In this document: positions 3,109 to 27,505 of the stretch, piece after piece | Layout: every line of letters starts with the position of its first letter | Position numbering within the stretch: position 1 is the first letter of the stretch | Source of the DNA: Nitrospirota bacterium | Lineage (GTDB): Bacteria; Nitrospirota; Thermodesulfovibrionia; Thermodesulfovibrionales; UBA9159 | Length of the DNA: 64,000 nucleotides | Reading direction: 5' to 3' | Assembly: GCA_963699545.1 (NCBI GenBank) | Contig: CAVOUE010000003.1 | Span: 160,001-224,000, forward strand | Notes under the pieces: generated by a model | The model's database searches: none | What the model was told of the DNA's origin: nothing | What the model saw: only the letters and a program-made list of their open reading frames with translations | Program-made: the position numbers and the translations under genes

Positions 3109-3219
3109 TCTTTCTCACCTCCTTTCCCATTTAAGCGCCTTCTCGCAGACCCCACCATGGGGCACTGCTTGTGTTCTTCTTGATGGCCTCAGTCGTTGAG
3201 GAGCACACAGCCCCGAACC

Positions 3220-3256
3220 AAAAAATGGCTTACTCCCCGGAAGGGGAGCAAGCCAT
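3220..3256 (-). terminator. Intrinsic terminator downstream of the SWIB-domain gene
   Basis: TGGCTT-ACTCCCC/GGGGAGC-AAGCCA hairpin with A6 tract (U-tract on minus strand). Confidence 0.65.
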
Positions 3257-3290
3257 GGGATAACAGAACGGTCTTCGACTGCCTGGCAGA

Positions 3291-3623
3291 TCAGCTCAGA
3301 TGCTTGCTGACCAGCTTGGTCATCTCGAACATCGTGACGGTCCTCTTTCCTCCGAACACTGCCCTGAGGTTCTCATCGGCATTGATATTTCTCTTGTTCA
3401 CCGCATCCTGTAGCTTGTTCTTCTTGATGTACTGCCAAAGTTTCTTCACCACCTCTGTCCTCGGGATGGGCTTGTTCCCCACAACCTTGGCAAGGGCATC
3501 GCTGATCTTCATCGCTTTCATGAATGCTGGGTTCGGTTTCCTCTTGGCCTTCACGGTCTTCTTCTTTGCTACCTTTTTCACCACCTTCTTTGTCACCTTC
3601 TTTGCGACCTTTTTTGGTGCCAT
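3291..3623 (-). CDS. SWIB/MDM2-domain protein with Lys-rich histone-H1-like N-terminal tail
   Basis: MAPKKVAKKVTKKVVKKVAKKK tail, then PRTEVVKKLWQYIKKNKLQD...NADENL...MFEMTKLVSKHL SWIB signature; start chosen after GGAG RBS. Confidence 0.85.
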   Translation of the reverse strand: MAPKKVAKKVTKKVVKKVAKKKTVKAKRKPNPAFMKAMKISDALAKVVGNKPIPRTEVVKKLWQYIKKNKLQDAVNKRNINADENLRAVFGGKRTVTMFEMTKLVSKHLS

Positions 3624-3814
3624 CTCTCCCTCCTTGTATCGTGAGCATCTCAATGATGCCATTGAGTTCCCTCTGTGCTAACTACATCCTACTAAACATC
3701 TCTCATCTTGTCAACCAATTTTCTTTATCCCCCGGGAATCGTTCCGGCTGCTGAAAAGGACGATCAGCAGTGACAGCCGGTCCTGTGCACCCCGCCCCTG
3801 ACGGATTTGGACGA

Positions 3815-4504
3815 CTACTTGACAGAGATCAGCTCCACCTCAAAGATCAGTGTCGCATTGGGGCCGATAACGCCCCCTGCCCCCTTCTCACCATAGGCAA
3901 GACTCGAAGGGATAACGAGCACCCACTTTGCCTCTTCTTTCATGAGCTGCAATGCCTCGGTCCACCCCGATATGACGCCGTTGACCGGAAAAGTTGCCGG
4001 TTGTCCGCGTTTATACGAACTGTCAAACTCCGAACCATCGATGAACGTCCCGCGGTAATGTACCGTAACAGTGTCTGTTGCCTTCGGCGACTTGCCTGTG
4101 CCCTCAGTGATCACCTTGTACTGCAACCCGCTGGGGAGGGTCTTCACTCCCTCCTTTTTCTTGTTGTCCGCGAGGAACTCCTCCCCCTCTTTCTTGCTCT
4201 TCTCGGCCACCTTCTTTGTTTCCTCAGCCTGCCTTGTCGTCATTTCCTGCCTGAAGGCATTCTTCACGGCAAGCATCTCCTCTTCGCTCATCAGGAGGGC
4301 GCTTCCCGAAAGGGAGTCCTTCAACCCCTGCAAAAGGACATCGGGATCAACATCAACCGCTTGTTTCTTCATGTTGTTCCCGGCCTCTACCCCCATAGTG
4401 TAGCTCAACTTCTCCTTCTGCGTCTTCAGTGTCATCTTCTCTGCAGCGCCTGCCTGGCCAGCCAGAAGAAAAATACCCAGGGCAACGAACCATCCGAATT
4501 TCAT
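3815..4504 (-). CDS. FKBP-type peptidyl-prolyl isomerase (FkpA/Mip-like)
   Basis: Signal peptide, FKBP_N (KLSYTMG), LPSGLQYKV, VHYRGT..FDSSY, VISGWTEAL, AYG..IGPNATLIFEVEL. Confidence 0.95.
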   Translation of the reverse strand: MKFGWFVALGIFLLAGQAGAAEKMTLKTQKEKLSYTMGVEAGNNMKKQAVDVDPDVLLQGLKDSLSGSALLMSEEEMLAVKNAFRQEMTTRQAEETKKVAEKSKKEGEEFLADNKKKEGVKTLPSGLQYKVITEGTGKSPKATDTVTVHYRGTFIDGSEFDSSYKRGQPATFPVNGVISGWTEALQLMKEEAKWVLVIPSSLAYGEKGAGGVIGPNATLIFEVELISVK

Positions 4505-4746
4505 GAAAACTCCTTTCTGATTTCGATATTTCCGACGTGTCCCTGTCGGTTCGCTCATGAGGTATTGTAAATGTTTCCTTCGTGCGATGCAACGCTTTCC
4601 CTGAAAAGTGAGCACTGGGCAAAGGCCCACTTTCCCCGACATTTCACCGAGCCGGCGAGATGCCGGTCTCTCTTCAAGGACGAAAGGGGTCTTGAGAGGA
4701 AAAACGTGCTATACTATTGCTAACAACGTGCAAAGGAGGAATCGTT

Positions 4747-4998
4747 ATGGCAAGAATGGTTACCTATGAGTGTGATGAATGCGGGTGTGAGATCGTCGTC
4801 ACCGAGATGCCGGAAACCGAGTTGACTCCCATCTCCTGCTGCGGCATGGAAGTGACCGAGGTGTCATCTGCGGCCGCGAAGCCGGCGCAGAAGACGGTGA
4901 AAAAGACAGCAAAGAGGGTGGCGAAAAAAGTCGCAAAGAAAAAGGTCGTTTCACGGAAGAAACCGGCCGCAAAAAAGACCGCGAAGAAATCCAGATAG
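4747..4998 (+). CDS. Small protein: desulforedoxin-like CxxC-x18-CC domain plus Lys/Ala-rich histone-H1-like tail
   Basis: YECDECG...SCCGMEV followed by KKTVKKTAKRVAKKVAKKK...; strong AAAGGAGG RBS. Confidence 0.7.
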   Translation: MARMVTYECDECGCEIVVTEMPETELTPISCCGMEVTEVSSAAAKPAQKTVKKTAKRVAKKVAKKKVVSRKKPAAKKTAKKSR

Positions 4999-5150
4999 AC
5001 CGGAAGGCTGCGGAAATACTTTTTCAAAAAAAAAGAAGGCTGCGATCAATATCGTTCTGAGCCGTATTACAGAGGATGGCTCCGAAAGGGAATTGGTCCG
5101 CCCTTCTCATGATCTCTGCCGGGGAACCCGCTCCCTTAATTGCCCCAGGG

Positions 5151-5552
5151 TCAAGGCTTCTTCCGGTAGAAAGAAGATTTGAATTTCTCCGGATGGAACG
5201 GATGCAGCCGGATGACCGTACACCCGGGGAGCTTTTCCTTTATCTGCTCATCCCTTACCCGCTGGTCATATCCCAGGGCGACGATATCGGGAGCAAGGTT
5301 GAGGAGAATAGAGAAGAGGTCCCCTTCCGGATTGCCGAGGACAACCCTGTCGGGGATGCCGGTCTGCTCCACGTTGGACCGCCGGCATTGCTCGTCATGA
5401 TCCGGCTTGATACCCTTTATCTTCAGGACATTTGTGTCCCTGGCGACAATCACGACAAGTTCGCTTCCCAGGGCCTTTGCCTGGTTGAGAAAATCAACAT
5501 GCCCCGGATGAAGATGGTCGAAGGTCCCCGCGCAGACGACCATCATGCCCAT
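5151..5552 (-). CDS. Cytidylyltransferase-family nucleotidyltransferase, FAD synthase (RibL)-like
   Basis: GTFDHLHPGH (HxGH), VIVARD, PDIVALGYDQ, KSS motifs. Confidence 0.75.
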   Translation of the reverse strand: MGMMVVCAGTFDHLHPGHVDFLNQAKALGSELVVIVARDTNVLKIKGIKPDHDEQCRRSNVEQTGIPDRVVLGNPEGDLFSILLNLAPDIVALGYDQRVRDEQIKEKLPGCTVIRLHPFHPEKFKSSFYRKKP

Positions 5553-10201: not shown

Positions 10202-12278
10202 CTATATTAACGGCACGATAAGAAGCGCTACGATGTTGATGACCTTGATCATAGGGTTGATCGCCGGGCCCGCTGTGTCTTTGTAAGGGTCTCCGACGGT
10301 ATCGCCTGTTACAGAGGCCTTATGCCCATCGCTCCCCTTCTTATGAACTTTCCCTTTGTCGTCGGTAACGCCCTCTTCAAAGGATTTCTTGGCGTTGTCC
10401 CATGCTCCGCCGCCGCTTGTCATGGCGATAGCCTGGAAGAGTCCGGTCAGGATACTACCGATAAGGACTCCACCGAGGGCTTCCCTGCCGAGGAGAAGAC
10501 CTACTGCGATAGGAACTACCACCGGGATAAGGGCAGGGACCATCATCTGCTTGATAGCGCCTTTTGTGACGATGTCAACGCACTTGCCGTATTCCGGCTT
10601 TGCCTTATATTCCATAATTCCGGGGATCTCCCTGAACTGTCTTCTGACCTCCTCAACAATACTGCCGGCTGCCTTTCCAACCGCCTCCATAAGGAGTGAG
10701 CCGTAATAATAAGGGAGAAGACCGCCGATGAAAAGACCTGCCAGGACCATCGGGTTTGAAAGGTCAAATTTCAGCGCGGTCGGGAAAGACCTTGAATACT
10801 CGGCAAAAAGGACCAGCGCTGCAAGACCTGCTGAGCCGATCGCATAACCCTTTGTAACAGCCTTTGTCGTATTTCCGACTGCATCCAATGGGTCTGTGAT
10901 GTTACGGATCTCTGCAGGCAGTCCCGACATTTCCGCTATACCGCCTGCGTTGTCAGTAATCGGACCGTATGAGTCGATCGCAACAACGATGCCTGTCATT
11001 GAAAGCATGGAAACCGCTGACAGGGCGATAGCAAAAAGACCGCCTGCTGCATCACCGGCGAATCCGCCGCCCAAAGCATATGCGCCGAGGATTGAGGCAA
11101 CAATAACTATAACAGGCGCGGCGGTTGACTTCATGCTGACCGCGAGACCGGCGATCACGTTTGTTCCGTGACCGGTCAGACTGGCCTTTGCAATGTGTTT
11201 CACCGGGGGATACTGCGAAGCAGTGAAGTACTCAGTTATAACCACGATCAGTCCGGTCAATGCAAGGCCGATAACCGCCATAAGGAAAACGTTCATTTGA
11301 GTAAATGACGCATGAGCAACCAATGAAGCCTGCGCTGAAGCGCCCTTCAGGAACTCGCCTGTCACAAAATAAAATACTATTGCCGCAAGCACGCCTGCAA
11401 CGGCAAGCCCCTTATAGAGGGCCCCCATGATGTACTGGCTTTTACCGAGCCTTACTGCAAAGGTTCCGATAATGGATGCGATGATCGATATTCCGCCGAG
11501 GAGCATCGGAAACTCAATCCAGTCGCTACCTACGCCAAAAACCGTCTTTGCCAAGAGCATTGCTGCAACAAGTGTAACCGTGTATGTTTCATAAAGGTCA
11601 GCTGCCATACCTGCGCAGTCCCCTACATTGTCTCCTACGTTATCTGCGATAACAGCAGGGTTTCTGGGATCGTCCTCGGGGATTCCCGCTTCAACTTTTC
11701 CAACGAGGTCAGCGCCTACGTCAGCAGCCTTTGTGTAGATACCGCCTGCGATACGGGCAAACACGCTCATAAGTGAGCATCCGAAGCCGAGGCCTACCAA
11801 GGCATGGAATACCATCTCAGGATTTGCTGCCTTTGCAATCGTATAAAAGCCTGCAAGGCCTATAATTCCAAGACCAACAACCATAACGCCGGTAACCGAG
11901 CCGCCCTTGAACGCAAGACTGAGCGCAGCCTGGAGAACCTCTGTGCGCGGCCTGTGTAGTGCGGACGTTAGCGCGGACAGTAACCCACATACCCACAAAG
12001 CCGGCAAGCGCAGAACCGAACGTGCCGACAATAAAGCCAATAGCGGTCCAAATGCCGAGATTCATCGCCGCGATAAGAACGACAAGGACCACTGCAACCA
12101 TCGCAACTGTCTTATATTCGCGTGCCAGGAACGCATATGCGCCCTCTTTGACCGCATTCGAGATCTCCTGCATCTTTGCACTGCCGGCGTCCTGCTTCGA
12201 TACCCACATTGCGGTCATAATTGCGTATATGACACCTAGTACACCGCAACCTAAGGCAAACAATATCGTTAGACTCAT
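10202..12278 (-). CDS. hppA: Membrane-bound ion-translocating pyrophosphatase, K+-independent H+-PPase type; one frameshift near 11937
   Basis: [64 protein letters not shown]-terminus in ORF 11817-12278. Confidence 0.95.
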
Positions 12279-12874: not shown

Positions 12875-14014
12875 CTACTCTCTTCCCGCCTGCTTCGCAA
12901 ACACCATGGCGGTAGCACGGTATACCATATGGGCCATCTTCGAAAAGGGCGCATATGCAAAGAGGAAGAAAACGAACACGAGGTGGATGAAATACGTAGG
13001 ATACGCCAGAGCAGCGATGTCCGCAAGCCTGAAGAGCTCCGAGAGTATGCCTGTGGCCATGATGGCGAAGACCACCAGGATGAAGAGCCAGTCATAATAA
13101 CTCCCGGCACCCGCTTTTTCCTTGTTCTTGAGCCGGTTGGTGATCACCAGCATAGTGCCGGCCAGGAGCGCAAGTGCGCTCACATTTCCGACAATCTTGA
13201 GCGGATCGTAGAGCGGAAAGGGCGAGTCCCCGAAGTGAAAAATGGAGAACGCCTCGATACCGAAGATCTTGTGCCCGTAGAGGTAAACAACCGCCCAGCT
13301 TGTTGTTATGGCAAGGCCGATGAAGGCATAGAAAACCAGGAGATGGGAGGTTGATCGGGCCATGGTCACATTGCACTTCTTGAACCTGCTGTGGGAGAGG
13401 ATATCTGCAATGACCCCCTTGAAACTCCCCATGATATCTCCCCTGACCTTCGCCCCTTCGCTCATGGCTGCCCAGTATTTCTTCACGCCGAGGACGAAGG
13501 AAACGACCGCAAAGATCGCCGCGGCAGTAAAGATCGGATCGACAAAATGGATGGGGATGAACTTTGAGTACACGATCTTCCCCTCGGGGAACGACGAAAG
13601 CTGGCCCTCATAGCCGGCAACACCGAGGAAAATGAGCACCGGCAGCGCAAAGAGGAGGATCAGGTACTTCGAGTCGCTCACCATATTGGCAAGGAACGAA
13701 GGCGCGGAAAATTCCCTTATGGTCATCTTTCGTATCGCACCGAGGACCTCACCCGGCTTGGCACCCCGGGGACAGTATGCGGTACAGTCACTGCACTGAT
13801 GACAGAGCCAGATGTCCGGGTTGCTGATGAGCCTGTCCTTCAGACCCCATTGCGCATACATCATCTCTTTCCGGGGAAAAGGTTTGCTGTCCGGGGTGAC
13901 ATTGCAGACCACCGAACAGGTGGCACACTGGAAACACTTTTTCAGCGATTCTCCCCCGCTGTTCATAACCTCTTTTACAAAATTCAAATCCGGGCTTATT
14001 GCCTGTTCTGCCAT
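12875..14014 (-). CDS. qmoC: Quinone-interacting membrane-bound oxidoreductase subunit C
   Basis: CFQCATCSVVC and CHQCSDCTAYCP clusters, then a membrane cytochrome-b domain (YFIHLV...PFSKMAHMVYR); downstream of qmoAB. Confidence 0.95.
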   Translation of the reverse strand: MAEQAISPDLNFVKEVMNSGGESLKKCFQCATCSVVCNVTPDSKPFPRKEMMYAQWGLKDRLISNPDIWLCHQCSDCTAYCPRGAKPGEVLGAIRKMTIREFSAPSFLANMVSDSKYLILLFALPVLIFLGVAGYEGQLSSFPEGKIVYSKFIPIHFVDPIFTAAAIFAVVSFVLGVKKYWAAMSEGAKVRGDIMGSFKGVIADILSHSRFKKCNVTMARSTSHLLVFYAFIGLAITTSWAVVYLYGHKIFGIEAFSIFHFGDSPFPLYDPLKIVGNVSALALLAGTMLVITNRLKNKEKAGAGSYYDWLFILVVFAIMATGILSELFRLADIAALAYPTYFIHLVFVFFLFAYAPFSKMAHMVYRATAMVFAKQAGRE

Positions 14015-14142: not shown

Positions 14143-16374
14143 TTAAAATTCCTTAAACGGATTAGGCCCTATTTCTTTGACCTTTGCGACAAACTCGTTG
14201 ATCATGTCGGGGAGTTTGTCATACTCATTGATCGCGACCTGCATCATCTGGACCCTTTCGGACTCAAGTTGGAGCCTGTTCAGTGTCTCTCCGATCTTGC
14301 TGAACCGGTAGTTTGCAAGCTCACTGCCCTTCACAAAGTGACACTGATAGTTTTCTCCGTATTTACAGCCGAGGAGCAGCACCCCGTCAACGCCTTTGGA
14401 GAGGGCGTCTGCAACCCACACGAGGTTCATGCCCCCGAGGCATCTCAGCGAAATAAACCTGACACTCGCATCGATCTCTTTACGGTTAATACCTGCGGTA
14501 TCAAGCGCCGGATATGCGTCGTTTTCGCAGGCAAGGCAGATGATCCTGAACTCCTCCTCGGGACAATCAAGCGACTTAATCATGGAGCCGATGATGTCAA
14601 CGCTGTAATCTTTAAATTGCACAATTCTTTCCGGACATGCGCCCATACAGGTCCCGCACCGTCTGCACCGGTTCAACTTATAAAAGGGTATACCCTTCTC
14701 GTCTTCTTCAATGGCCCCAAAGGGACATTCTTCCGTACACCTTTTGCACGCGGTACACCTGATGAGCATCGGGTCGGGGAACGTGATGTCCCAGGCCCTC
14801 GGATGGACGGCCATTCCTCTTGAGGCGTGATCGACGCATTGTATCGCCTTAAAGGCCGCGCCCGCCGCATCTTCCTGCGCTTCGGACATATTCATGGGCT
14901 GCCTCACACAGCCCGCAGCGTAGACACCGGTCCTCCTCGTTTCATACTGAAAGCAGATGAAGTTCGAATCCGCAAACCCGCACGCACCTTCAAGTGAAGG
15001 GAGCTCCGGGCCCTGCCTGTAAGCGAGGTTCAGGATATATTCCGGCTTCGGTGTTGTCTCAAGATATGCCTTCTTGGCGTCATCACCCTTTGCAGCTTCC
15101 AGGGCGAGATTATCGAGATATTCCTGTGGCGCCCTCGTCGTCGGGACCATGCCCGTTGCAAGAACGACCAGATCGGCCTCAACCGTCACCTTTTCGCCAA
15201 GAAGCGAATTCTCCATCTCGACAAGGAGGTTGCCGTTTCCGACCTCGGTAACGCCGGTAACATCGGCTTTCGTGAGCATGACGCCCGGATCGTTCTGGGC
15301 CTCCATGTAATATGATTCGAGCCTCCCCGGTGTTCTTATATCAATATAGAAGATCATTGCAAGCGCATCGGGGTTCTGCCTCACATACTTTGCCTGTTTC
15401 AGCGATGTCGCGCAGCACATGGACGAGCAATAGGGAAGATGATTCGGGTTCCTCTGCCCTGCACATTGAATAAAGGCCACCTTCCTCGCCTCTTTACCGT
15501 TGGAGGGCTTTATGATCTTTCCGTTGTTCTTCTTTGCGATTTCCTCGAATTCTATGTTTGTCACCACGTCTTTGGATTTCCCGTATCCGAGGTAATCAAG
15601 CTTTGTGGCGTCATAGGGCTTCCAGCCTGTGGCCATGACAATTGCGCCGATCTTTACGGTCTCGGAGTTGCCGTTTGACGCTATCGTCACGTCATACAGA
15701 CCCGGCTGACCTTCTGTCTTCTCAACCTTTGCGGACTTATAGACCTTAATATCCGGATTGCTTTCCACTTCTTTGATAAGCGCATCTGCGTCGGTATCCA
15801 CTATGAGGGGCTCTCTGAAAAACACCCCCATCGGAATTTTCTTGTAGAGTTTATTCATAAAGCCGCCGAGCTGGGGCTCCTTTTCCACAAGGACGACCTT
15901 CTGCCCCGCCTTTGCCGCCTCAATAGCTGCTGTCATGCCGCTTATGCCGCCGCCGATGACCAGGATTGTACTGCTCAGGTTCTCAAGGATGTTCGGCTCC
16001 GGCAGATCCCCTTTCTGCGTCTTGACGATACCCATGATAAGATAGTCCGCCGCAATGGTCTGGGTCTCATCGGTCTTCGGAGGCTTGCTCCAGGCGACGA
16101 ATTCCCTCATATTCACTCTCTCGGTAATAGTTCCGGAAAAGGAAAACTCATCATACTTCACACGCGGAGAGCAGGCCGCTATGATGATCGTGTTCACTCC
16201 GTCCTTGATATCGTCCTTGATCAACTGGACTCCGGCGGGACCGCATAAGATATCGTGGGTCTTGCAGTTAGCGATCTTCATGTCCTTTGTGGCCACATTC
16301 GAGAGCTTCTCTATGTCAATGGCATCGCCAATGCCGCAGCCTTTGCAGATATATACGCCGAATTTCTTCTCCAT
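14143..16374 (-). CDS. qmoB: Qmo subunit B (HdrA-like flavoprotein with ferredoxin and MvhD-like domains)
   Basis: GGGISG FAD site, QCAGQR..YCSSMCC, two CxxCxxCxxxCP, CENDAYPA..CLG..GCKYGENYQCHF. Confidence 0.95.
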   Translation of the reverse strand: MEKKFGVYICKGCGIGDAIDIEKLSNVATKDMKIANCKTHDILCGPAGVQLIKDDIKDGVNTIIIAACSPRVKYDEFSFSGTITERVNMREFVAWSKPPKTDETQTIAADYLIMGIVKTQKGDLPEPNILENLSSTILVIGGGISGMTAAIEAAKAGQKVVLVEKEPQLGGFMNKLYKKIPMGVFFREPLIVDTDADALIKEVESNPDIKVYKSAKVEKTEGQPGLYDVTIASNGNSETVKIGAIVMATGWKPYDATKLDYLGYGKSKDVVTNIEFEEIAKKNNGKIIKPSNGKEARKVAFIQCAGQRNPNHLPYCSSMCCATSLKQAKYVRQNPDALAMIFYIDIRTPGRLESYYMEAQNDPGVMLTKADVTGVTEVGNGNLLVEMENSLLGEKVTVEADLVVLATGMVPTTRAPQEYLDNLALEAAKGDDAKKAYLETTPKPEYILNLAYRQGPELPSLEGACGFADSNFICFQYETRRTGVYAAGCVRQPMNMSEAQEDAAGAAFKAIQCVDHASRGMAVHPRAWDITFPDPMLIRCTACKRCTEECPFGAIEEDEKGIPFYKLNRCRRCGTCMGACPERIVQFKDYSVDIIGSMIKSLDCPEEEFRIICLACENDAYPALDTAGINRKEIDASVRFISLRCLGGMNLVWVADALSKGVDGVLLLGCKYGENYQCHFVKGSELANYRFSKIGETLNRLQLESERVQMMQVAINEYDKLPDMINEFVAKVKEIGPNPFKEF

Positions 16375-16376
16375 CG

Positions 16377-17639
16377 CTATTTCCTCCTCAAACTCTGCAT
16401 GCTCTTGATCGCAACACCCGTGGCGTCCTGAACAGACCGAACAACATCAGCAGGACTCTTCAGTGTCCCCACGGCATATATGCCTTTTTTCGCGCTGCCA
16501 GCGTCCACAAACCCATCAGGCGTATAAGAGATATCCTTGACGATTTTCGAGTCCTTTGTGCCGGGGACCATACCTGCGGCAAGGACCACCATATCAAAGG
16601 TCGCCTTGATCTTCTTGCCGCCCAGAATATCTTCTACCTCAACGATGACATCCTTCGTAGCAGGGTCTTCGGTAATCCCCGCAACCTTGCCCTTTGTTAG
16701 GGTGACATTGGGATCGTCCTTCACCTTCCACAGGAATCTGTTCTCATAAAGCCCGGGAGTCCTAAGGTCGATGTAAAATATCTGCGCCTTTGAATCCGGG
16801 TATTGTTCCCTGATATACATGGTCTGCTTCAGTGAAGCAAGGCAGCATATATACGAACAGTAGGGAAGATGGTTCTCGTCCCTCGATCCCGCGCACTGGA
16901 CAAAGGCGATGTTCTTCACCTCTTTGCCGTCAGACGGACGGACGATTTTGCCGCCCGTAGGCCCGTTCGCCGCAGCCAGCCTCTCCATCATCATGTTCGT
17001 GATCACATTCTGGACTTTTCCAAAGCCCGAGGTTGTCCATTCTGGTGGCATCGTACAGGTTCCATCCTGTAGCCATAACAATGGCGCCGACCTTGAGGCT
17101 TACTGTTTCCGTCTTCATATTCAGGTCAATGGCGTCGTATTTGCAGGCGTCAAAACACGCCTTCATGCAGTCTTTTGCGCAGGCTGAATCGTCGATCACA
17201 TATGTGAAGGGAAATGCCTGATTAAAAGGGAAGATACGCTGCCTTCGTCTTGTCCATTCCGAAATTAAAATCATTACTGCGATATGACGGACATGCTTGC
17301 GCACAGGCATCGCAGCCCACGCACTTGTCATTTACGTACCTCGGATTGACCTTCACGGTCACATCGAAAGTTGCCCTCTTCTCCCTTGATTTCCTGCACC
17401 TCGGCCAGCGTATAGAATTTAATCTGTCCGCTGTTCTTTATCCTCTTGAACTGTATCTCAAGGCCACACACTGGCGGGCATAGTTTCCAGAAGTACTTAT
17501 TCAACTGCGCCACCTTGCCGCCAAGATAGGGGTTCTTCTCGACGATAACAACGTCGTTACCGGCCTCAGCGATTTCCACTGCTGCAGTGAGACCGCTGAA
17601 ACCTCCTCCGATTATTAAAGCTGTTTTATTCTCTGCCAT
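16377..17639 (-). CDS. qmoA: Qmo subunit A (HdrA-like), split by two frameshifts
   Basis: [47 protein letters not shown] across ORFs 17328-17639, 16930-17331, 16377-17081. Confidence 0.9.
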
Positions 17640-17797: not shown

Positions 17798-19801
17798 TTA
17801 CTTATACATCTCGACATAGGGAACCTTCTTGAATTCCCATTTGTTGGTCGCGCTGTCGTACTTCGAATTGGTGAAGCACTTCCAGTTTGTGTCATCGATC
17901 TTGTTAAAGTCGCCCCTGTAGTAGTACCCGGGGTACCTGGACTCCTCCCTGAAGAGGATATGCCTTGCATGCGCCTCGACCGACAGAATTCTGTGGTAGT
18001 TCTCGAAGCACCTTAAGAGCTCGTGGAGGTCTTTTGCCGCCATCTTTGCGGCATCCTCTTTGAGCATCTCAAGCTTCTTGAGGCCTTCTTCAAGCATCGT
18101 CTTTGAGGTCATGTACCAGGTGGCAACCCCACCGAAGTACTCGTCGGAAATCTTCTGGAGTCTCAGCTGAAGCGATTTCGGACCGATGTAATTGGGGTTG
18201 ATCGTGGGATCCGTCGAATAGGTCTTGTATTTCTCATACATCTCGAACGGCAGATAGAGCTCGGCCGCAATCTCATCAAGGGACAATTTCGGTGACGGCT
18301 TGTAGTCTGCGTGGTCGAGGATGAATGCCAACGCGCCCTTTGCTGCGATCCTGCCCTCTGCATGGGAACCGGATGAGAATTTGTGGCCTGAGGCGCCGAC
18401 AACGTCACCAGCCATGAAGAGACCGGGTACGGTAGACATCCTGTTGTATCCCCAACTGTAATGTGCGGGTGTGCCGGCAATATCGCCGGGGCCGCTCACC
18501 CAGAATCCTGCGCAGCCTGCGTGTGAACCCAAGAGATAGGGCTCTGTCGGCATAATTTCGGATGTACTCTTATCCGGCTCAATATTACTTGCCGCCCACA
18601 GGGACGCCTGTCCGATAGCCATGTCAAGGAAGTCTTCCCATGCCTCTGCCTCGAGGTGTTTCATCTTCTTGGCGCCTTCTTTATCGCCAAGTTTCTCTTT
18701 GAAGCCTTTCCCCAGGGCCTCCATAGCCGCAGGGGTCTGCATGAGGATCGGGCCCCTGCCGTCCCTCATGGCCCTCATCATAAGATGGTTCCTGATCGCC
18801 GTACCGAGACCTTTTGCATAGTCTCCGTATCTGGCAACCGCATCATCAAAATATTCCTTGTCCGCGCAGTAGTCGTTCCCGAAGCTGTCTGTTGCCTTTG
18901 CCTTAAAGAACAGGAACCATGCGCCGACAGGACCATATCCGTCCTTAAATCTTGCGGGCACGAACCTGTTCTCCATCAGGGTCAGCTCGGCGCCGGCCTG
19001 CATGCCGAACGCATACCCCGAACCGCAGCTGAATACCGGGTACCAGGTCCTTCCCATACCTTCACCAACCGACCTCGGTCTGAAGCAGTTAACTGCTCCC
19101 GCAGTCGCACAGATCATCGCCTTTGCTTTAAAGGAGTAAATCTTGTTTTCCCTCACGCTGAACCCGATGGCCGCTGCCACGTTTTTCCCATTGGTATCCA
19201 TTACCGCCTTCACAATGAATACCCTTTCAAAATGGTTCTGCGCCATACCGGTTTTTTCCCTGTTGACCTGAAGGGCCTTCTTCGCAGCCTCTGCAACGAC
19301 AACCTTATAGGACTCGCCATTGATCATGATCTGCCATTTGCCGGACCTTACCGGTGTTCCGCCGTCCTTCAGGCTCGCCTTACCGGCATCTTTTGCCTGG
19401 AAGCCATCGAGTGAGAACCCGTCATCGCCCTTCTTCCAGATGGGGAGACCCCATTCTTCAAAGAGCTGGACCGAATCGTCAACGTGCCTGCCGAGGTCAA
19501 ACACAAGGTCTTCCCTGATGATACCCATCAGGTCGTTTCTCACGTATTTAACATAATCAGCAACCTTGTTCTCACCAACATAGGTGTTAATGGCGGACAG
19601 GCCCATTGCGACTGCGCCGCTTCTGTCTGTTGCAGCCTTGTCAACCAGGACAACCTTAAGTCCCTTTTCATTTGCCCAGCGGCATGCTTCGAACGCAGCG
19701 CCGCACCCTGCCATACCGCCGCCCATGATCAGGAGATCGGTTTCAACTTCAGTTACTTCAGGCTTCGCACAAAATGAAAATGTACAAGTTTCTTTTTCCA
19801 T
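17798..19801 (-). CDS. aprA: Dissimilatory adenylylsulfate reductase alpha subunit
   Basis: GGGMAGCG, RSGAVAMGLSAINTY, WQIMINGESYK, ENRFVPARFKDGYGPVGAWF, HKFSSGS, ESRYPGYYYR. Confidence 0.98.
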   Translation of the reverse strand: MEKETCTFSFCAKPEVTEVETDLLIMGGGMAGCGAAFEACRWANEKGLKVVLVDKAATDRSGAVAMGLSAINTYVGENKVADYVKYVRNDLMGIIREDLVFDLGRHVDDSVQLFEEWGLPIWKKGDDGFSLDGFQAKDAGKASLKDGGTPVRSGKWQIMINGESYKVVVAEAAKKALQVNREKTGMAQNHFERVFIVKAVMDTNGKNVAAAIGFSVRENKIYSFKAKAMICATAGAVNCFRPRSVGEGMGRTWYPVFSCGSGYAFGMQAGAELTLMENRFVPARFKDGYGPVGAWFLFFKAKATDSFGNDYCADKEYFDDAVARYGDYAKGLGTAIRNHLMMRAMRDGRGPILMQTPAAMEALGKGFKEKLGDKEGAKKMKHLEAEAWEDFLDMAIGQASLWAASNIEPDKSTSEIMPTEPYLLGSHAGCAGFWVSGPGDIAGTPAHYSWGYNRMSTVPGLFMAGDVVGASGHKFSSGSHAEGRIAAKGALAFILDHADYKPSPKLSLDEIAAELYLPFEMYEKYKTYSTDPTINPNYIGPKSLQLRLQKISDEYFGGVATWYMTSKTMLEEGLKKLEMLKEDAAKMAAKDLHELLRCFENYHRILSVEAHARHILFREESRYPGYYYRGDFNKIDDTNWKCFTNSKYDSATNKWEFKKVPYVEMYK

Positions 19802-19814
19802 GTATATTCACCTC

Positions 19815-20234
19815 CTATTCATTTCTTGCCGGGCCGGTAAAGAAACCAGGCTTCTTAAGTGTCGCAAAATCAGGCGCCGGTTTCCCTGCATACGGATCAA
19901 CCGAACCCTCTGCTGTTGTCCTGATGGGGAACTTGAACCTCTTGAGGACCCCGTTCCTGAACTTGATCGTCCACATAATGGAGTCGGTGCCTCTCAAGGG
20001 GATAGTGCTGGACCCGAGGGGAACGAAGTCTGAATAACCCCTGACCTCGATCGCCTGCTGCGGGCAGATCTTGACACAGTTAAAGCACTCCCAGCACTGC
20101 TCAGGCTCCTGATTGTATGCCTTCATCTTTTCTCTGTTGAGGGCCATCAAATCATGAGGACAGATATACTGGCATGCGGTCTTATCCTGGGCCTTACATC
20201 CATCACATTTCTCGGTAATCACAAAACTTGGCAT
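19815..20234 (-). CDS. aprB: Adenylylsulfate reductase beta subunit
   Basis: CDGCK..TACQYICPHDLM, CWECFNCVKICPQQAI, KRFKFPIRTT. Confidence 0.98.
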   Translation of the reverse strand: MPSFVITEKCDGCKAQDKTACQYICPHDLMALNREKMKAYNQEPEQCWECFNCVKICPQQAIEVRGYSDFVPLGSSTIPLRGTDSIMWTIKFRNGVLKRFKFPIRTTAEGSVDPYAGKPAPDFATLKKPGFFTGPARNE

Positions 20235-20379
20235 GTTCCTTAACCTCCTTTACGGTTTCTCAATATCAGCCTTAGCACCTAAGGCAGTAATCCAAAACTT
20301 TCCGATGAGCTAAATCTCCACCTCCTCTCACTTCTGAATATTTGTGTACCTTTATCTCGGCCTTTAATACGACATGAAT

Positions 20380-21579
20380 CTATTTATCAAGACTCTGATA
20401 ATACTTAATCAGAATTTCCGCCACCTCAGGACGTGAGAATTCTTTCGGCGGCGCAATACCCTTCCCTAACATTTCACGGACTTTTGTACCCGAAAGCAGA
20501 ACGAAATCTTCTTTTGTATGATCAGGCGCTTCACACATCATCACGACCTTGTTCAGTTTCTTCGAGTATGCAGTATGGTCTGCCTTGAAGATTTCGATTT
20601 TCAGCGCACCGGCAGGTACTTCATCGTCGAAGATTTTTTGCGCATCAAATGCACCGTAGTGATCACCCACACCCGCATGGTCACGACCAACAATGAAGTG
20701 AGTTGCGCCCATGTTTTGACGGAATATAGCGTGCAATACACCTTCCCGTGGTCCGGCATACAGCATATCGAAACCGTAACCAGTAATCATTGCACTGTTT
20801 TTTGGGAAGTACAGCTCAACCATTTTACGGATCGCAGCATCACGAACAGGTGCCGGGATATCTCCTTTTTTCAATTTACCAAGTAACATGTGAATAACCA
20901 GACCATCACAACCTAAACGCTTCATTGCCATGTGACAAAGTTCTTCGTGGGCCAGATGCATCGGGTTACGGGTCTGGAAAGCAACAACCTTACTCCAGCC
21001 GCGCTCAGTGATTTCGTTGCGAATTTCGACTGCTGTGCGGAACGTGTCCGGGAATTCATCCTGGAAGTAAGAGAAGTTTAATACTTTAATTGGACCTGAC
21101 AGACAAACTTTACCCTGAGCGTTGAATGCTTCAACACCTGGATGTGCTTCCCCAGCCCTGGGCCGGTAAACTTTTTCAGACATCAGCGCCATCTCTGCAT
21201 CGCTGAATTCTTCAACCGCGACAACATCCATAACTGCAAGGATTGGATTGCCTTCAACGTTCGGATCTTTCAGTGCAATGCGATTACCCGCCTTGATTGA
21301 GCCTGCATTGTTAACCAGGTTTAAAATCGGAGTAGGCCAGAACAAACCGGATGTTGTTTTCATATTTTTCGCAACAGACAGCGCATCAGCTTTATTCATG
21401 TAGCCTGTCAATGGATTGAAGTAACCGCCACCCAGCATAACTGCATTCGCTGCAGTAGCTGAGCTCACAACAATAGAAGCCAGACCTTCAGCTTCTTTCT
21501 GCAGGGTTTCATTCTCAGTCGTGTCATACACGAATAGTGGATTCAGTTTGTCTGAACCATGTGGTTTAATTAATGCCAT
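20380..21579 (-). CDS. sat: Dissimilatory sulfate adenylyltransferase (ATP sulfurylase), sulfur-oxidiser-like sequence
   Basis: VAFQTRNPMHLAHEEL, MLYAGPRE, HFIVGRDHAGVG, LSGTKVREML, EFSRPEV. Confidence 0.97.
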   Translation of the reverse strand: MALIKPHGSDKLNPLFVYDTTENETLQKEAEGLASIVVSSATAANAVMLGGGYFNPLTGYMNKADALSVAKNMKTTSGLFWPTPILNLVNNAGSIKAGNRIALKDPNVEGNPILAVMDVVAVEEFSDAEMALMSEKVYRPRAGEAHPGVEAFNAQGKVCLSGPIKVLNFSYFQDEFPDTFRTAVEIRNEITERGWSKVVAFQTRNPMHLAHEELCHMAMKRLGCDGLVIHMLLGKLKKGDIPAPVRDAAIRKMVELYFPKNSAMITGYGFDMLYAGPREGVLHAIFRQNMGATHFIVGRDHAGVGDHYGAFDAQKIFDDEVPAGALKIEIFKADHTAYSKKLNKVVMMCEAPDHTKEDFVLLSGTKVREMLGKGIAPPKEFSRPEVAEILIKYYQSLDK

Positions 21580-21816
21580 TTTCCCCTCCTGTTAAGGTAT
21601 TTTTTGTAGGGCAATGCTGAACCCTTAATCCACAATGACCTTTTGCCTGATCCGCGCTTCCGGGCTCCATGAAGCCGCCTAAGAACGTTTTTTCAGAGAC
21701 CGTTCACGCGATGATGTTCGAAAGAGCACTATAAATTAATCGATGTCGGGATTTAATGCAATTTTAAAATTATAATTCAAAGATTAGTTTTCCTTATAAA
21801 AATTGACGAGGGACGG

Positions 21817-21853
21817 AAAAAGTCGACGGCAGGAGCCCAAGCCCCCGCCGTCG
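21817..21853 (-). terminator. Probable intrinsic terminator after adk
   Basis: CGACGGC...GCCGTCG hairpin with A5 tract on the low-coordinate side. Confidence 0.5.
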
Positions 21854-21878
21854 GACGGGAAAAACGCAATACCGCAGG

Positions 21879-22526
21879 CTATTTCAATCCCAGGGAATTA
21901 CAAACCGCCTTAAAGATATCATCGATGCTTCCTGTTCCGCTGACAGAACTTAATATCCCCTTCTTCTTGTAGTAATCGAAGAGAGGCGCCGTTTGTGAGC
22001 TGTACACATCGAGCCGCTTCTTGATCGTCTCTTCCTTGTCGTCATCCCTTTGGAATAATGCCCCCCCGCATTTATCACAGGTCCCCTCCTTCTTCGGAGA
22101 GTTGAAGTAGACGTTATACATCTGGCCACAGCCCTTGCAGGTCCTTCTGCCGGTAAGCCTCTTCATGAGGTCGTCAAGGGGAACATCAACGCTTAATGCG
22201 GCGGTCAGGGGCATCTTCAGCGTGTCAAGCATCGCATCCAGGGCTTCGGCCTGGGCCGTGTTCCTCGGGAAACCATCAAGGATATATCCTTTTTTGCAGT
22301 CATCCTGTTTCAGCCTCTCCCCGACCATACCAAGCACCACCCTGTCGGGAACAAGCTCCCCCTTGTCCATAAAAGATTTCGCCTCTTTGCCGAGGGAAGT
22401 TCCGGCCGCAACTGCTGCCCGCAGAAGGTCGCCGGTGGAGATTTGAGGAATTCCGTATTTTTCGATAAGTTTTTTCGCCTGAGTCCCCTTACCGGCACCT
22501 GGTGCGCCAAGTAGTACAAGTCTCAT
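21879..22526 (-). CDS. adk: Adenylate kinase (Zn-lid type)
   Basis: GAPGAGKGTQA, ISTGDLLR, LDGFPR, CKGC...CDKC lid, QRDDD. Confidence 0.97.
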   Translation of the reverse strand: MRLVLLGAPGAGKGTQAKKLIEKYGIPQISTGDLLRAAVAAGTSLGKEAKSFMDKGELVPDRVVLGMVGERLKQDDCKKGYILDGFPRNTAQAEALDAMLDTLKMPLTAALSVDVPLDDLMKRLTGRRTCKGCGQMYNVYFNSPKKEGTCDKCGGALFQRDDDKEETIKKRLDVYSSQTAPLFDYYKKKGILSSVSGTGSIDDIFKAVCNSLGLK

Positions 22527-22695: not shown

Positions 22696-23289
22696 TCATA
22701 AGGAAGAGAGATAGGCCCTCAACTTTCTCAATGCTGCACCCCGGTGACTCAATGCATCCTTTTCATCGGCGCTCATCTCCGCAAAGGTTGTGTTATGGCC
22801 CTTCGGGTAAAATACCGGGTCATAGCCAAAGCCACTGACACCTTTTGGTTCCATCCCTATCTTGCCTTCCGAAAAACCAAGAAAGGTCTTTACCCTGCCA
22901 TCAGGAAATGCAAGGGCCACGCAGCAGACAAAGCGTGCCCCCCTTTTGCCCTCTTCCACCCCCTGCAGTTCAGCGAGCAGTTTATCGAGGTTCTTTCTGT
23001 CATCGGCACCGACACCTGCATATCGCGCCGACCAGACACCCGGAGCGCCGTTCAGGGTGTATACCTCAAGGCCTGAATCATCGGCAATGGCCGGTTTTTT
23101 TGTGTATCGTGCCACCGCCTCCGCCTTTTTCACCGCGTTCCCTTCGAAGGTGCCTGCGTCTTCTTCCACATCGGGACACCCGGGGAAGTCATCAAGGGTG
23201 TAAAGCGCCACCGGAACGCCCTGCAGTATCCTCTTTATCTCCCCGACCTTCTTCTTGTTCCTTGTGGCGATCACAAGTTCACGTTCCAT
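22696..23289 (-). CDS. rdgB: dITP/XTP pyrophosphatase (HAM1 family)
   Basis: ATRNKKK, ADDSGL, PGVWSARYA, GFGYDPVF, SHRG. Confidence 0.92.
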   Translation of the reverse strand: MERELVIATRNKKKVGEIKRILQGVPVALYTLDDFPGCPDVEEDAGTFEGNAVKKAEAVARYTKKPAIADDSGLEVYTLNGAPGVWSARYAGVGADDRKNLDKLLAELQGVEEGKRGARFVCCVALAFPDGRVKTFLGFSEGKIGMEPKGVSGFGYDPVFYPKGHNTTFAEMSADEKDALSHRGAALRKLRAYLSSL

Positions 23290-23464
23290 GGTACCCCCGT
23301 GTTCATCATATCCGCCGCAACAGCCCTCATAAGATACCCGACTCCAGCGCAAAGGTAAACGAAAAAATTCATGCTGCAGTTGCTTTTCCCGTAACAAAAT
23401 CTGATACTATAGACCGTGCTGGAGCACTGCTGCATACGGAGAAGTCTTCATTTTCTGAGGAGAT

Positions 23465-25037: not shown

Positions 25038-25586
25038 CTATATTTGTATTCTGGGTCTGGGTACTTGTTCACCTGTGAGAAGCTCCTGTAGCATCTCTAT
25101 CGGGTAAAGATGTCTGCTCCCCCTCATGAGGCTTCTGTTTATGTCCTTGTTGACCGCAAGAATCCGTGTTTTTTCGATACCCTCGTACCGCTGGATAATA
25201 AGGTACTCAGCTTCAAAGGCAAGCTGGGTCATAGCTCCCAAAACCGTCTTGCTTGCAGTCTTCGCAAACCCCATCTCCGTGTACTCAGTCATAACCCTGT
25301 TTATGACCTCAAGGGGAAATCCCTCTGCCTGTAAATTCATGTTCAGGTGAAACAGGAACTCATCTATGATGTTTGTAAGGTTCTCCTTCTTCACCTTGGG
25401 GATAAGAAAACTGTAAAGGGTTTTCTCATTCGTAAACAGGATGCACTTCCTGCGGTCAATCCGTAGGAGGTTGGCGTACCAGTTACCGAGACATTGTGTG
25501 TCGGGTTCATAGGCAGGAGTCTGAAGGGGAGGGTTTCCGAGTTCCTTGAGGAGCTTTTGGGTGCAGTGGAGGAGTGTCATTTTCAA
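25038..25586 (-). CDS. Hypothetical protein (DUF6933-like)
   Basis: CTQKLL, LGNWYANL, NEKTLYSF, KT.SK.VLG.M pattern; family recalled, not verified. Confidence 0.55.
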   Translation of the reverse strand: MKMTLLHCTQKLLKELGNPPLQTPAYEPDTQCLGNWYANLLRIDRRKCILFTNEKTLYSFLIPKVKKENLTNIIDEFLFHLNMNLQAEGFPLEVINRVMTEYTEMGFAKTASKTVLGAMTQLAFEAEYLIIQRYEGIEKTRILAVNKDINRSLMRGSRHLYPIEMLQELLTGEQVPRPRIQI

Positions 25587-25588
25587 GG

Positions 25589-26251
25589 CTATTCACGCAA
25601 AATATTTCCACATTTGGAGCAATAATATGCGTCTTCGTCATTTTGAGTTCCGCACTTTTCACAGAGGGATGGTATTATTTTGTTCCCGCATTGGCTGCAA
25701 AATACTGCTCCCTTACCAATGATTTTCCCACATGTCGGACATAAGTCATCTCTTATCTTAAAGCCGCAATAAGTGCATACAATCTTGTGCGATAGGAGCA
25801 TCGCTTTGCATTTTGGACACCAGATAAATACGTCAGACCCATCATCTTCAACATCTTTATCTGGAATTCCCTGCTTATGTACATTCTCGCTCTGTTCTTC
25901 CGTTTTCTCTCTGCTTAATTCAATTTTAGGTTCAGAGTGGCGTGTTTCACGAACATAAAATATTGAAACCATAAATAAGACACTTGCAACAATATCTATA
26001 ACAGCCCATGTCTCTCTATCAAAACGAAAAGGTATTATGGGATTAAAGATAAGAGCAACTACTCCGAATACAATTTGCACCCCTTTCTTAGACTGATTAG
26101 AGGCAAGGGATACAGTATAAGCTCCAACTCCAAAGGTTATCACCCGTAGGAAAAAGTAGTATCCATAGGGGAGCGGTGTAAGAGCTAATAACAGCATCGC
26201 TGAAACAACACCTCTTAGAATTATTGATGGCGGGAGTTCTGTGAGCTTCAT
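25589..26251 (-). CDS. Membrane protein (DUF6804-like) with C-terminal zinc ribbons
   Basis: PLPYGYY..LR, FNPIIP, W..ID TM region; six CxxC pairs at the C-terminus. Confidence 0.7.
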   Translation of the reverse strand: MKLTELPPSIILRGVVSAMLLLALTPLPYGYYFFLRVITFGVGAYTVSLASNQSKKGVQIVFGVVALIFNPIIPFRFDRETWAVIDIVASVLFMVSIFYVRETRHSEPKIELSREKTEEQSENVHKQGIPDKDVEDDGSDVFIWCPKCKAMLLSHKIVCTYCGFKIRDDLCPTCGKIIGKGAVFCSQCGNKIIPSLCEKCGTQNDEDAYYCSKCGNILRE

Positions 26252-26536
26252 AGGGTATCTCTCATAATGAATGCACTGAGTCAACCATCCTTCGGTAACA
26301 TTTTCCTATGAGGCAACTGGTCATAAAAACTTCGGCTCACGGTAATCGGAATAGGCTTCGCACCTGCTTTTCTTCTTGCAAGATGCCTCACAGCCTTCAA
26401 TGTACTGATAATGTCCTCCTGCTGGGCACCATATTTTGTCTGTTTTTTTACTTTCAATATTGGCATCCTTGGTCAGTGGCTTATCGAGTTTCTTTACCAT
26501 TTGTTTTGTCTGTCCTATATCCTGAAAGCGGGGAAA

Positions 26537-27073
26537 TTAGCTATATTTGGTTTCACGATATTTCCCCGTCAGTCTAAAAAATATTTTTTCGATACGATAA
26601 GTGATAAAACCGAGCTTATGCTTATATATACGAAATCTGATTCTTTCTGTTCTCCCCTTGGTAGATTTAAACTTATACTGCCGAAAGAAATAAAAAACTA
26701 TATCTTCACCGTAATCAGGGTCACTGAGAATGCTGTCCTCTTTTGCTACTGCCTCGATGACTGTTGGCACATGAGCGTTTAGCGTTCTCTCTTTAGATGT
26801 GATTTCGAACTTAATTCTCTTAGCTTTCATCTTTGGATTTAAGCCAGTCAAAACTATTTCTTTGTCTAAAGAGGTTACTTGAGAACCTAGATTTTCAACT
26901 TCGAAACTTACGCTATATTTGTTGTCGCTAAAATGTTCTTTCAATAATTCAATCCTCAAGCGTATGCGATTTTTCCAGCGGTCCCAAACAAACAAAATTC
27001 CGCCAGACCCACCAATCAGATAAAGAATTCGTAAGGGGTCGGCTAAAAAATAATCAAAAAGCTTGCTAAACAT
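26537..27073 (-). CDS. AT-rich hypothetical protein with N-terminal hydrophobic segment
   Basis: 178-aa ORF in visibly AT-rich DNA; no recognised family. Confidence 0.5.
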   Translation of the reverse strand: MFSKLFDYFLADPLRILYLIGGSGGILFVWDRWKNRIRLRIELLKEHFSDNKYSVSFEVENLGSQVTSLDKEIVLTGLNPKMKAKRIKFEITSKERTLNAHVPTVIEAVAKEDSILSDPDYGEDIVFYFFRQYKFKSTKGRTERIRFRIYKHKLGFITYRIEKIFFRLTGKYRETKYS

Positions 27074-27505
27074 ATTTTAATCGTCCATTCATCAAGTTTT
27101 GTATCCCGTATGGATATAAAATACTTCTCGATAATGGAAAGGTCAAGGACTCATGGCATTGACTAAGAAAATTTTGCCGAAAACTCAGCATTGACCTTGT
27201 GGCTCGGTGCGATATGCACATGTAACATTTAATTAGGAGGTAGCTAGAATTGCCCTGCAGAATGGGTCCAAATCGAGTTTAAGAGGGGGACAGGCGAATG
27301 GCGAAGCTCGGATATGGGTGGGGAGGCTAGAAGGCTTAGAATGGATTTGAATCGGGGAAGCTCAAATCAGTATTTTGCGGTTCTTTCGTTGGGGACTGAT
27401 TCAGGGACAATCTGGGGGGGAATCCGAAAGTGGACTGTTCACGGTTTGTTCACGGTATTTTTGAAGATTTCAGGGGGATAACATATTAACGTAAAAAGAA
27501 AGAAA

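Follow-up and report, generated by a model that had tools for sequence, protein, structure and literature searches.

The 64,000-nucleotide stretch of DNA analysed here (the window), which comes from a Nitrospirota bacterium of the order Thermodesulfovibrionales (contig CAVOUE010000003.1 of assembly GCA_963699545.1), carries on its minus strand a gene cluster for the adenosine 5´-phosphosulfate (APS) pathway in the order rdgB (Ham1 family), adk, sat, aprB, aprA, qmoA, qmoB, qmoC, a CBS-domain gene, and hppA. The resident slot of the Thermodesulfovibrionales, rdgB-adk-sat-aprBA-qmoABC-hppA, is conserved. The ATP sulfurylase (Sat) encoded by the sat gene of the window belongs to a lineage of proteobacterial sulfur oxidisers. 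In this study, we establish the foreign origin of this gene, its displacement of the resident sat in place, and its spread within the order. The explanation that we favour, and consider very probable, is that an oxidiser-lineage Sat displaced the resident gene in place, spread within the order, and serves the resident APS pathway. The features of the locus are listed below from the foreign gene outward; G001 is a genome of the same genus that has a native sat.

20380..21579, minus strand: sat, encoding a 399-amino-acid ATP sulfurylase of the proteobacterial sulfur-oxidiser lineage, as judged by Pfam, PDB, identity, and codons
20331..20365, minus strand: non-coding remnant ('scar') of the 3´ end of a resident sat, starting 14 bases past the foreign stop codon
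21585..21590, minus strand: AGGAGG ribosome-binding site upstream of the sat ATG, placed by alignment
21717..21798, minus strand: AT-rich, promoter-like, conserved resident element, 78% identical to that of native-sat G001
21824..21853, minus strand: terminator-like hairpin after adk, with 13 pairs, 10 of them G-C, then a T run
21879..22526, minus strand: adk, the upstream resident flank (Pfam ADK), with 95% amino acid and 89% nucleotide identity to G001
22696..23397, minus strand: rdgB/Ham1-family gene, the outer resident flank (Pfam Ham1p_like), syntenic in 9 of 10 relatives' loci, the tenth locus ending short
20235..20330, minus strand: aprB leader, resident DNA, in which homology to native-sat relatives resumes (G001 from 20286, G014 from 20330)
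19815..20234, minus strand: aprB (Pfam APS-reductase_C and Fer4), with 92% amino acid identity to G001
17798..19801, minus strand: aprA of the sulfate-reducer type, best PDB match 3GYX (835 bits), with 94% amino acid identity to G001 and G008
16377..17639, minus strand: qmoA, read in three frames as assembled, with three single-base insertions as compared with G014 (near 17370, 17234, and 17029)
14143..16374, minus strand: qmoB (Pfam FlpD, Pyr_redox_2, and Fer4), intact
12875..14014, minus strand: qmoC, an Fe-S domain followed by hydrophobic segments (Pfam Fer4_8/9/17), intact and syntenic with relatives
10202..12278, minus strand: hppA, H+-pyrophosphatase with one frameshift (Pfam H_PPase positions 1-103 and 100-645 on two overlapping reading frames)

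Origin of the Sat protein

From its sequence, the sat product is predicted to be a working ATP sulfurylase. The reading frame is intact, and the protein contains an N-terminal PF14306 domain (PUA_2, 112.7 bits) followed by PF01747 (ATP-sulfurylase, 251.4 bits), both above cut-off. The closest solved structures are PDB 1JHD (655 bits over residues 3-398) and, second, 4DNX (629 bits), which we take to be the enzymes of the Riftia symbiont and of Allochromatium vinosum, respectively. The motifs QTRNPMH at residue 202 and GRDHAG at residue 298, presumably the catalytic QxRNPxH and GRDHAG motifs of ATP sulfurylases, align to those in both structures. A first-pass annotation of this DNA had likened the protein to the sulfur-oxidiser ATP sulfurylase of the Riftia symbiont, and the best solved match agrees with it. 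Sat is of the same length and domain order as these two gammaproteobacterial dissimilatory enzymes and aligns with them end to end with a single one-residue gap. Unlike the oxidiser hosts of such enzymes, however, the host here is a member of the Nitrospirota with a sulfate-reducer-type AprBA, a QmoABC complex that includes QmoC, and a reductive-looking set of dsr genes.

Close database relatives of Sat, which are 90-100% identical, bear names such as Nitrospirae, Thermodesulfovibrionales, and Thermodesulfovibrionia, in keeping with the assignment of the genome to this order. Outside the Nitrospirota, the nearest Sat proteins of species-representative genomes are 82-89% identical. Those of Thiothrix caldifontis and T. 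lacustris share 86-87% of their residues with the window Sat, those of Thiotrichaceae and other gammaproteobacterial metagenome-assembled genomes (MAGs) up to 89%, and those of Cocleimonas 82-83%, while the values for the Chromatiaceae, Sedimenticolaceae, and alphaproteobacterial rows are 76-80%. A search through 50%-identity cluster representatives, which matched mostly fragments, did not find the donor. In a tree of 95 Sat rows, the 26 Nitrospirota copies form one clade with a support of 99 in the Shimodaira-Hasegawa-like approximate likelihood ratio test (SH-aLRT). This clade lies inside a 63-row clade (SH-aLRT 95) whose other 37 rows are Pseudomonadota, among them Thiothrix, Cocleimonas, and other Thiotrichaceae. 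An 85-row clade (SH-aLRT 100) is separate from 10 resident-type rows, and the Nitrospirota clade stands far from these rows of the usual Sat of the order. In the alignment, no position separates the Nitrospirota from the proteobacterial Sat at the 90% level, which suggests that the enzyme was adopted without change.

The codon use of sat points in the same direction as the tree and the identities, and all three bear out the earlier claim that the gene is a xenolog from the proteobacterial sulfur-oxidiser lineage. Its 15 arginine codons (20380-21579, minus strand) are 8 CGT, 4 CGC, 2 CGG, and 1 AGG, whereas arginine is encoded by AGA or AGG in 7/7 cases in aprB and 27/28 in aprA. These are exactly the numbers that the first-pass annotation had read from sat (14 of 15 CGN, 12 of them CGT or CGC) and from aprB, and what it had seen in part of aprA holds for the whole gene. 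Its remark that sat is more AT-rich is likewise correct, as the GC content of 0.46 and the GC content at third codon positions (GC3) of 0.43 are both below those of the six neighbours qmoC, qmoB, aprA, aprB, adk, and rdgB (0.51-0.54 and 0.56-0.70, respectively). For a ranking across the 3.04-Mb, 13-contig genome, open reading frames (ORFs) were taken from a self-trained codon model, and those of at least 200 codons that contain 8 arginines or more, 1752 in all, were retained. Among them, sat has the fourth highest share of CGT/CGC, and counted from the lowest upward it ranks 37th in GC3 and 26th in the likelihood of its synonymous choices. The ribosomal-protein, EF-Tu, and EF-G operons of the host (32 ORFs, all confirmed by Pfam) have AGA/AGG at 281 of 406 arginines and CGT/CGC at 52 of 406, with a GC3 of 0.64. 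As the highly expressed genes of the host mostly use AGA/AGG, the bias of sat is not a high-expression bias of its host.

The origin of this bias is apparent from the homologues. Proteobacterial sat genes contain on average 7.2 CGT, 6.5 CGC, and 0.6 AGA/AGG codons per gene (59 loci), and the Nitrospirota xenologs 8.4, 4.6, and 0.66 (29 rows, 4 duplicates), whereas the resident type has a mean of 12.6 AGA/AGG (11 rows). Since the xenologs match the proteobacterial genes in this respect and differ from the resident type, their arginine codons are a retained mark of the donor. The GC3 of the xenologs, on the other hand, varies among hosts from 0.36 to 0.63, being lower than that of the neighbour genes in all 5 genomes compared, and the low value in the window fits the low-GC3 copies to which the window sat is closest. 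The earlier description of the gene as barely ameliorated is therefore apt for its arginine codons, but not in the sense of a fresh arrival from a proteobacterium, given this range of GC3 and the position of the closest copies within the order.

High shares of CGT/CGC also occur in groups of ORFs elsewhere in the genome (C3:735900-790200, C7:114000-118900, and C10:120292-122490). GC3 is high as well in most of these CGT/CGC-rich groups, with several values above 0.75 and a maximum of 0.92, which sets them apart from the rest of the genome; they may represent contamination or islands of another origin.

Displacement in place and spread within the order

A Sat match was obtained in 36 of 41 related genomes. 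The majority of these proteins, including that of G001, are 46-48% identical to the window Sat, and those of G008, G019, G031, and G040 are 89-94% identical. The order rdgB-adk-sat-aprB-aprA-qmoA-qmoB is common to all 10 of the relatives' loci that were compared, as far as each reaches, with a foreign sat in 4 of them and a resident one in 6. The resident Thermodesulfovibrionales Sat has the same slot, the same neighbours, and the same family as the window Sat, but it is only 45-49% identical to it, its gene encodes arginine by AGA/AGG, and at its C-terminus it is longer by a tail of about 14 residues. The contrast is sharpest with G001, where the slot holds a Sat of the resident type that is 47% identical to that of the window. 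The DNA of the two genomes is 84% identical over rdgB-adk and 90% identical over aprBA and its leader, while homology is lost between about 21717 and about 20286, save for a weak match in the catalytic core.

Behind the foreign gene lies the remnant of its predecessor. The 35 bases at 20331-20365 are 91% identical to the last codons of the native sat tail in G014, and the local-alignment score of 28 was reached by none of 200 shuffles. A score of at least 15 was found in 7 of 26 xenolog loci as against 0 of 59 proteobacterial loci. The position of a resident sat remnant behind the foreign gene indicates that the resident sat was there first and was then overwritten. We regard the in-situ displacement of the resident gene by the foreign one as demonstrated by these sequence comparisons. 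The first-pass annotation had proposed such a replacement inside a resident aprBA-qmoABC cluster, and the conserved slot, the contrast with G001, and the remnant all uphold it; that the cluster has kept QmoC also holds, as qmoC at 12875-14014 is intact. As qmoA is frameshifted, the cluster as assembled is not intact.

On the upstream side, the AT-rich element at 21717-21798 aligns in four genomes of family f1 with either type of sat, and it is putatively the resident promoter region, kept upstream of the foreign gene. A scan of this element with the sigma-70 consensus gave no site, and an Rfam scan of 20150-21950 gave no match. The AGGAGG site lies in a stretch that is common to the window and the xenolog-bearing G008 and G040 and is not shared with native-sat G001. 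The gap between sat and aprB in the window has no hairpin. In several relatives (L018/G035, L017/G040, and L013/G001) this gap contains inverted arrays of 7-base repeats, which are missing from the window and from G014.

Xenologous gene displacement in situ within conserved operons was reportedly described by Omelchenko, Koonin, and colleagues in 2003. The present case conforms to that concept in that a single gene of a cluster was replaced by a distant homologue while its neighbours remained resident. It differs in that the stump of the displaced gene is visible and the spread of the allele among families can be traced. Passages of PMC10504309 concern the green sulfur bacteria, for which an uptake of sat-aprBA-qmoABC from sulfate reducers is proposed. 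In both cases APS-pathway genes have been exchanged between reducers and oxidisers, but in the window the direction is from oxidiser to reducer, and one gene rather than the whole cascade is involved.

The foreign allele is patchily distributed. A Sat match is present in 270 of 317 genomes of the order, and at least 50 of the 317, in 5 of 13 families, carry the foreign type (2 genomes in f1, 10 in f6, 9 in f11, 28 in f2, and 1, a broken copy, in f12); 6 of the 50 copies are partial or interrupted. Both Sat types occur within at least 6 genera (g1, g31, g38, g44, g48, and g122). A third Sat lineage, 28-32% identical to the window Sat, lies between adk and aprB in two genomes from other families of the order, at the following positions.

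L112 (G027), 4360-5472: third-type Sat
L113 (G006), 3396-4466: third-type Sat

In G025 (L114), the slot holds the resident type and a third-type copy lies beyond hppA (the two sat genes are at 2946-4097 and 14345-15511). With a third lineage in it, this position is evidently prone to replacement, and it has been overwritten more than once.

Silent sites indicate that the foreign allele has moved recently. At the nucleotide level, the window sat is 91% identical to that of G040 and 92% to that of L025, whereas adk, aprB, and aprA of these two are 66-79% identical to those of the window. At four-fold degenerate sites the corresponding identities are 0.72-0.73 for sat and 0.34-0.36 for the flanks, so that sat is as similar to these copies as the flanks of the window are to those of its genus-mate G001 (0.63-0.68). 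Over 292 pairs of xenolog loci, the median four-fold identity is 0.56 for sat and 0.42 for the flanks; the difference is above 0.15 in favour of sat in 150 pairs and above 0.15 in favour of the flanks in 2. After correction for base composition, the median excess identity is 0.22 for sat and 0.08 for the flanks, with sat having the larger value in 252 of the 292 pairs. In 36 resident-type pairs, by comparison, the medians are 0.31 for sat and 0.34 for the flanks, and no pair lies above +0.15, which means that only the foreign allele shows recent movement in this sample. Saturated xenolog pairs do exist (the window against G019, L027, L040, and L073, at 0.36-0.43), and the silent sites of sat are therefore not generally frozen. 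The foreign copies in the Nitrospirota are also shallow, all being at least 87% identical to the window copy, in comparison with values down to 76% for the proteobacterial proteins.

We conclude that the foreign allele appears to have passed from one lineage of the order to another long after these lineages had split, and that the window genome gained it after its separation from G001. As the Nitrospirota copies form a single clade and the closest DNA copies are found in other families, the last step was most likely a transfer within the order, and the immediate source was probably another member of the Thermodesulfovibrionales and not a proteobacterium.

Two further observations concern the surroundings of sat. 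The AprA proteins of relatives fall largely into two groups by identity to that of the window, about 87-94% and about 60-79%. These groups do not track the family codes, and the foreign sat is found alongside either of them; aprBA may thus have been exchanged within the order independently. In the window, the low-GC stretch at 25400-27300 (0.37-0.42), with ORFs containing DUF6933, DUF6804 and a zinc ribbon, and one without a family match, may be another acquired segment.

Direction of the APS pathway

The reaction of Sat, ATP + sulfate <-> APS + pyrophosphate (PPi), is reversible. From the combination of an oxidative-type Sat with a cluster that keeps QmoC, which it called a mosaic APS pathway, the first-pass annotation suggested that the pathway may run in reverse. 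The dsr genes of the window genome (G000) bear on this question.

G000 C3:398736-412100 (L109), same contig as sat: dsr locus with dsrA, dsrB, a DsrD-like ORF, dsrN, dsrC, a DsrT-like ORF, and dsrMKJOP

For the dsrA product the score is 530 bits, which exceeds the cut-off. Immediately behind dsrB, the DsrD-like ORF reaches 21.6-22.1 bits, just short of the cut-off of 24.2, and it is followed in order by DsrN-, DsrC-, DsrT- (RsbRD_N), DsrM-, DsrK-, DsrO-, and DsrP-like ORFs. A tusA-dsrE-dsrE-dsrH-like cluster adjoins the operon on the other strand, and a second DsrE-DsrE-DsrH-like set is found on C12 at about 133.8-136.9 kb with genes for an ArsR-type regulator and a flavoprotein disulfide reductase. 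By gene content, there are dsrAB, the sub-cut-off DsrD-like ORF, the DsrT-like ORF, and dsrMKJOP, and DsrE/DsrH-like genes too; in its layout the locus looks reductive. A divergent, second dsrAB-like pair lies at G000 C4:38371-40648 (L111 6371-8648), beside genes for cytochrome P460 and uroporphyrinogen decarboxylase; its dsrA scores 317 bits, below the cut-off of 393 bits.

The DsrH-like genes have no link to the type of sat, being present in 37 of the 41 relatives, of either type. A search of the genome by codon signature indicated that no oxidative genes came with sat, and no other sulfur gene with its signature was found among the low-GC3, CGT/CGC-rich ORFs of the genome; the others appear from their sequences to be methyltransferase-, repressor-, and defence-like or mobile. 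Given the reductive layout of dsr, the indifference of DsrH to the type of sat, and the lack of a codon-matched sulfur gene, no finding links sat to an oxidative module, and the suggestion of a reversed pathway finds no specific support. The flux would mainly run towards the activation of sulfate, in an organism whose Dsr system is reductive, and could be reversed in disproportionation, as with any Sat. Passages of PMC10504309 describe the Sat-AprAB-Qmo cascade of reducers as reversible and propose that it oxidises sulfite during disproportionation.

Explanations and their meaning

In the course of events that we favour, a sat gene of the proteobacterial oxidiser lineage, whose nearest named relatives are in Thiothrix and other Thiotrichaceae, would have entered the Nitrospirota from another phylum once, or very few times. 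It displaced the resident sat between adk and aprB; the putative promoter region upstream, from which the gene would be expressed, was kept, and the 35-base stump was left downstream. Homologous replacement at this slot would then have carried the foreign allele from one Thermodesulfovibrionales lineage to another, and it would have reached the window genome after the split of the latter from the same-genus relative with the resident type. There it would work with the resident AprBA, QmoABC, and H+-pyrophosphatase in a like-for-like replacement. The spread of the allele suggests an advantage of the foreign Sat, and selection may have driven it.

Several observations weigh against this account. 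When all 32 sampled proteobacterial rows were kept together, the approximately unbiased (AU) test did not reject the tree (p 0.718), and the tree constrained in this way scores 16.3 log-likelihood units higher. The outgroup of the tested tree is the very distant resident type; with such an outgroup, this result means that the tree alone neither fixes the root nor shows that the Nitrospirota clade is nested inside the Gammaproteobacteria. The evidence for the direction of transfer is the remnant together with the conserved slot, the patchy occurrence, and the use of codons. A clear remnant, in turn, is present in just 7 of 26 xenolog loci, and the low synonymous divergence of sat could come partly from codon constraint. 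In the search for a vector no phage record matched, and all 33 plasmid records were below 60% identity. The assembly contains frameshifts in qmoA, hppA, and both EF-Tu genes; no public sequencing run matched more than 18% of the words sampled from 19700-22100, and four runs gave only short contigs of relatives, none of which spans that interval.

The quality of the assembly raises the question of whether the sat segment comes from a co-occurring sulfur oxidiser and was joined in by mis-assembly or a binning error. The genome is MAG-like (87% complete, 5% contamination), with many frameshifts, including several indels in each of the two EF-Tu genes (G000 C11:13355-14557 and C12:45999-47200). 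As the EF-Tu genes, hppA, and qmoA, all essential or highly conserved, are affected, these are probably indel errors of the assembly and not pseudogenes, the insertions in qmoA included, and apparent pseudogenes of this assembly are not to be trusted. These features, and the poor coverage in public runs, would suit an artefact. However, the contig is 903 kb long, and a foreign sat between adk and aprB is also found in 4 other genomes and in 21 named public loci, whose records, by their titles, appear to be from many different studies. Moreover, the window copy is at most about 92% identical in nucleotides to any other copy and 79% identical to the nearest gammaproteobacterial gene (L038), and the resident remnant and promoter region directly adjoin it. 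An artefact is thus extremely improbable. It is also very improbable, if slightly less so, that this Sat type arose in the Nitrospirota and was passed to the Proteobacteria. The AU test leaves room for a root on the Nitrospirota stem, but the remnant behind the gene is that of a different and widespread resident sat, the foreign type occurs in just 50 of 317 genomes and 5 of 13 families, its copies in the Nitrospirota are shallow beside the proteobacterial ones, and the arginine codons match those of Proteobacteria and not those of the hosts.

The alternatives that differ from our account in the reason for the spread deserve more weight. It is possible, if doubtful, that the two Sat types are equivalent and that the foreign one spread only because conserved flanks favour homologous recombination. 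Within the order, three Sat lineages are found at this one position, adk and aprB hardly vary in their N-terminal codons, and the Nitrospirota copies lack lineage-specific substitutions, all of which would be expected of such a neutral displacement; the resident type, however, shows no comparable synonymous excess (0/36 pairs vs 150/292). We consider it rather unlikely that the oxidiser Sat was taken up because it favours the conversion of APS and PPi to ATP and sulfate, in which case it would serve sulfite oxidation in disproportionation or sulfur oxidation, with ATP formed by substrate-level phosphorylation. The named members of the Sat lineage are sulfur oxidisers, the recent spread across families suggests an advantage, and the tusA-dsrE-dsrE-dsrH-like cluster adjoins the dsr operon. 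One MAG labelled Dissulfurispiraceae carries the xenolog, and the sole species of that family named in passages of PMC12998232 is a disproportionator. Nevertheless, the DsrH-like genes accompany either type of sat, the dsr layout is reductive, no other sulfur gene bears the codon signature of sat, and a functional change would have to be reconciled with the absence of any position that separates the Nitrospirota from the proteobacterial Sat at the 90% level. In addition, the reducers' own cascade is already reversible according to the passages of PMC10504309.

We found no published account of a foreign Sat in the Nitrospirota in a full-text search without supplements or subscription-only papers (e.g., descriptions of Dissulfurispira). 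Such a Sat is unmentioned in the passages available from PMC10203281, PMC10504309, PMC12998232, PMC11406059, PMC8477390, and PMC6338057, or in those from bioRxiv 10.1101/196774 and 10.1101/2023.06.27.546762. The displacement by an oxidiser-lineage Sat is unusually legible, as what is left of the old gene can still be seen and the subsequent passage of the foreign allele between species can be traced; these two aspects, the stump and the recent spread within the order, go beyond the first reading of the window.

In genome-based typing, sat, aprBA, and qmo count as a single block, and the types of the markers are taken to give the direction of the metabolism. About one in six species-level genomes of this widespread subsurface order has an oxidiser-type Sat in an otherwise reducer-type block, and type-specific models could therefore mislabel such organisms. 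The occurrence of the two alleles at one locus in at least 6 genera also amounts to a clean natural experiment, in which kinetic or ecological consequences of the Sat type can be studied against an almost uniform genetic background. Tentatively, and with more doubt than confidence, we consider that the allele may be sweeping through freshwater and subsurface Thermodesulfovibrionales across species and families, by homologous replacement at the one slot, because it changes the performance of the APS pathway. If so, the gain could lie in a better recovery of ATP from sulfite oxidation in disproportionation, or in a better activation of sulfate where sulfate is low, and behaviour in the sulfur cycle that typing by dsr fails to predict would be predictable from the type of Sat.

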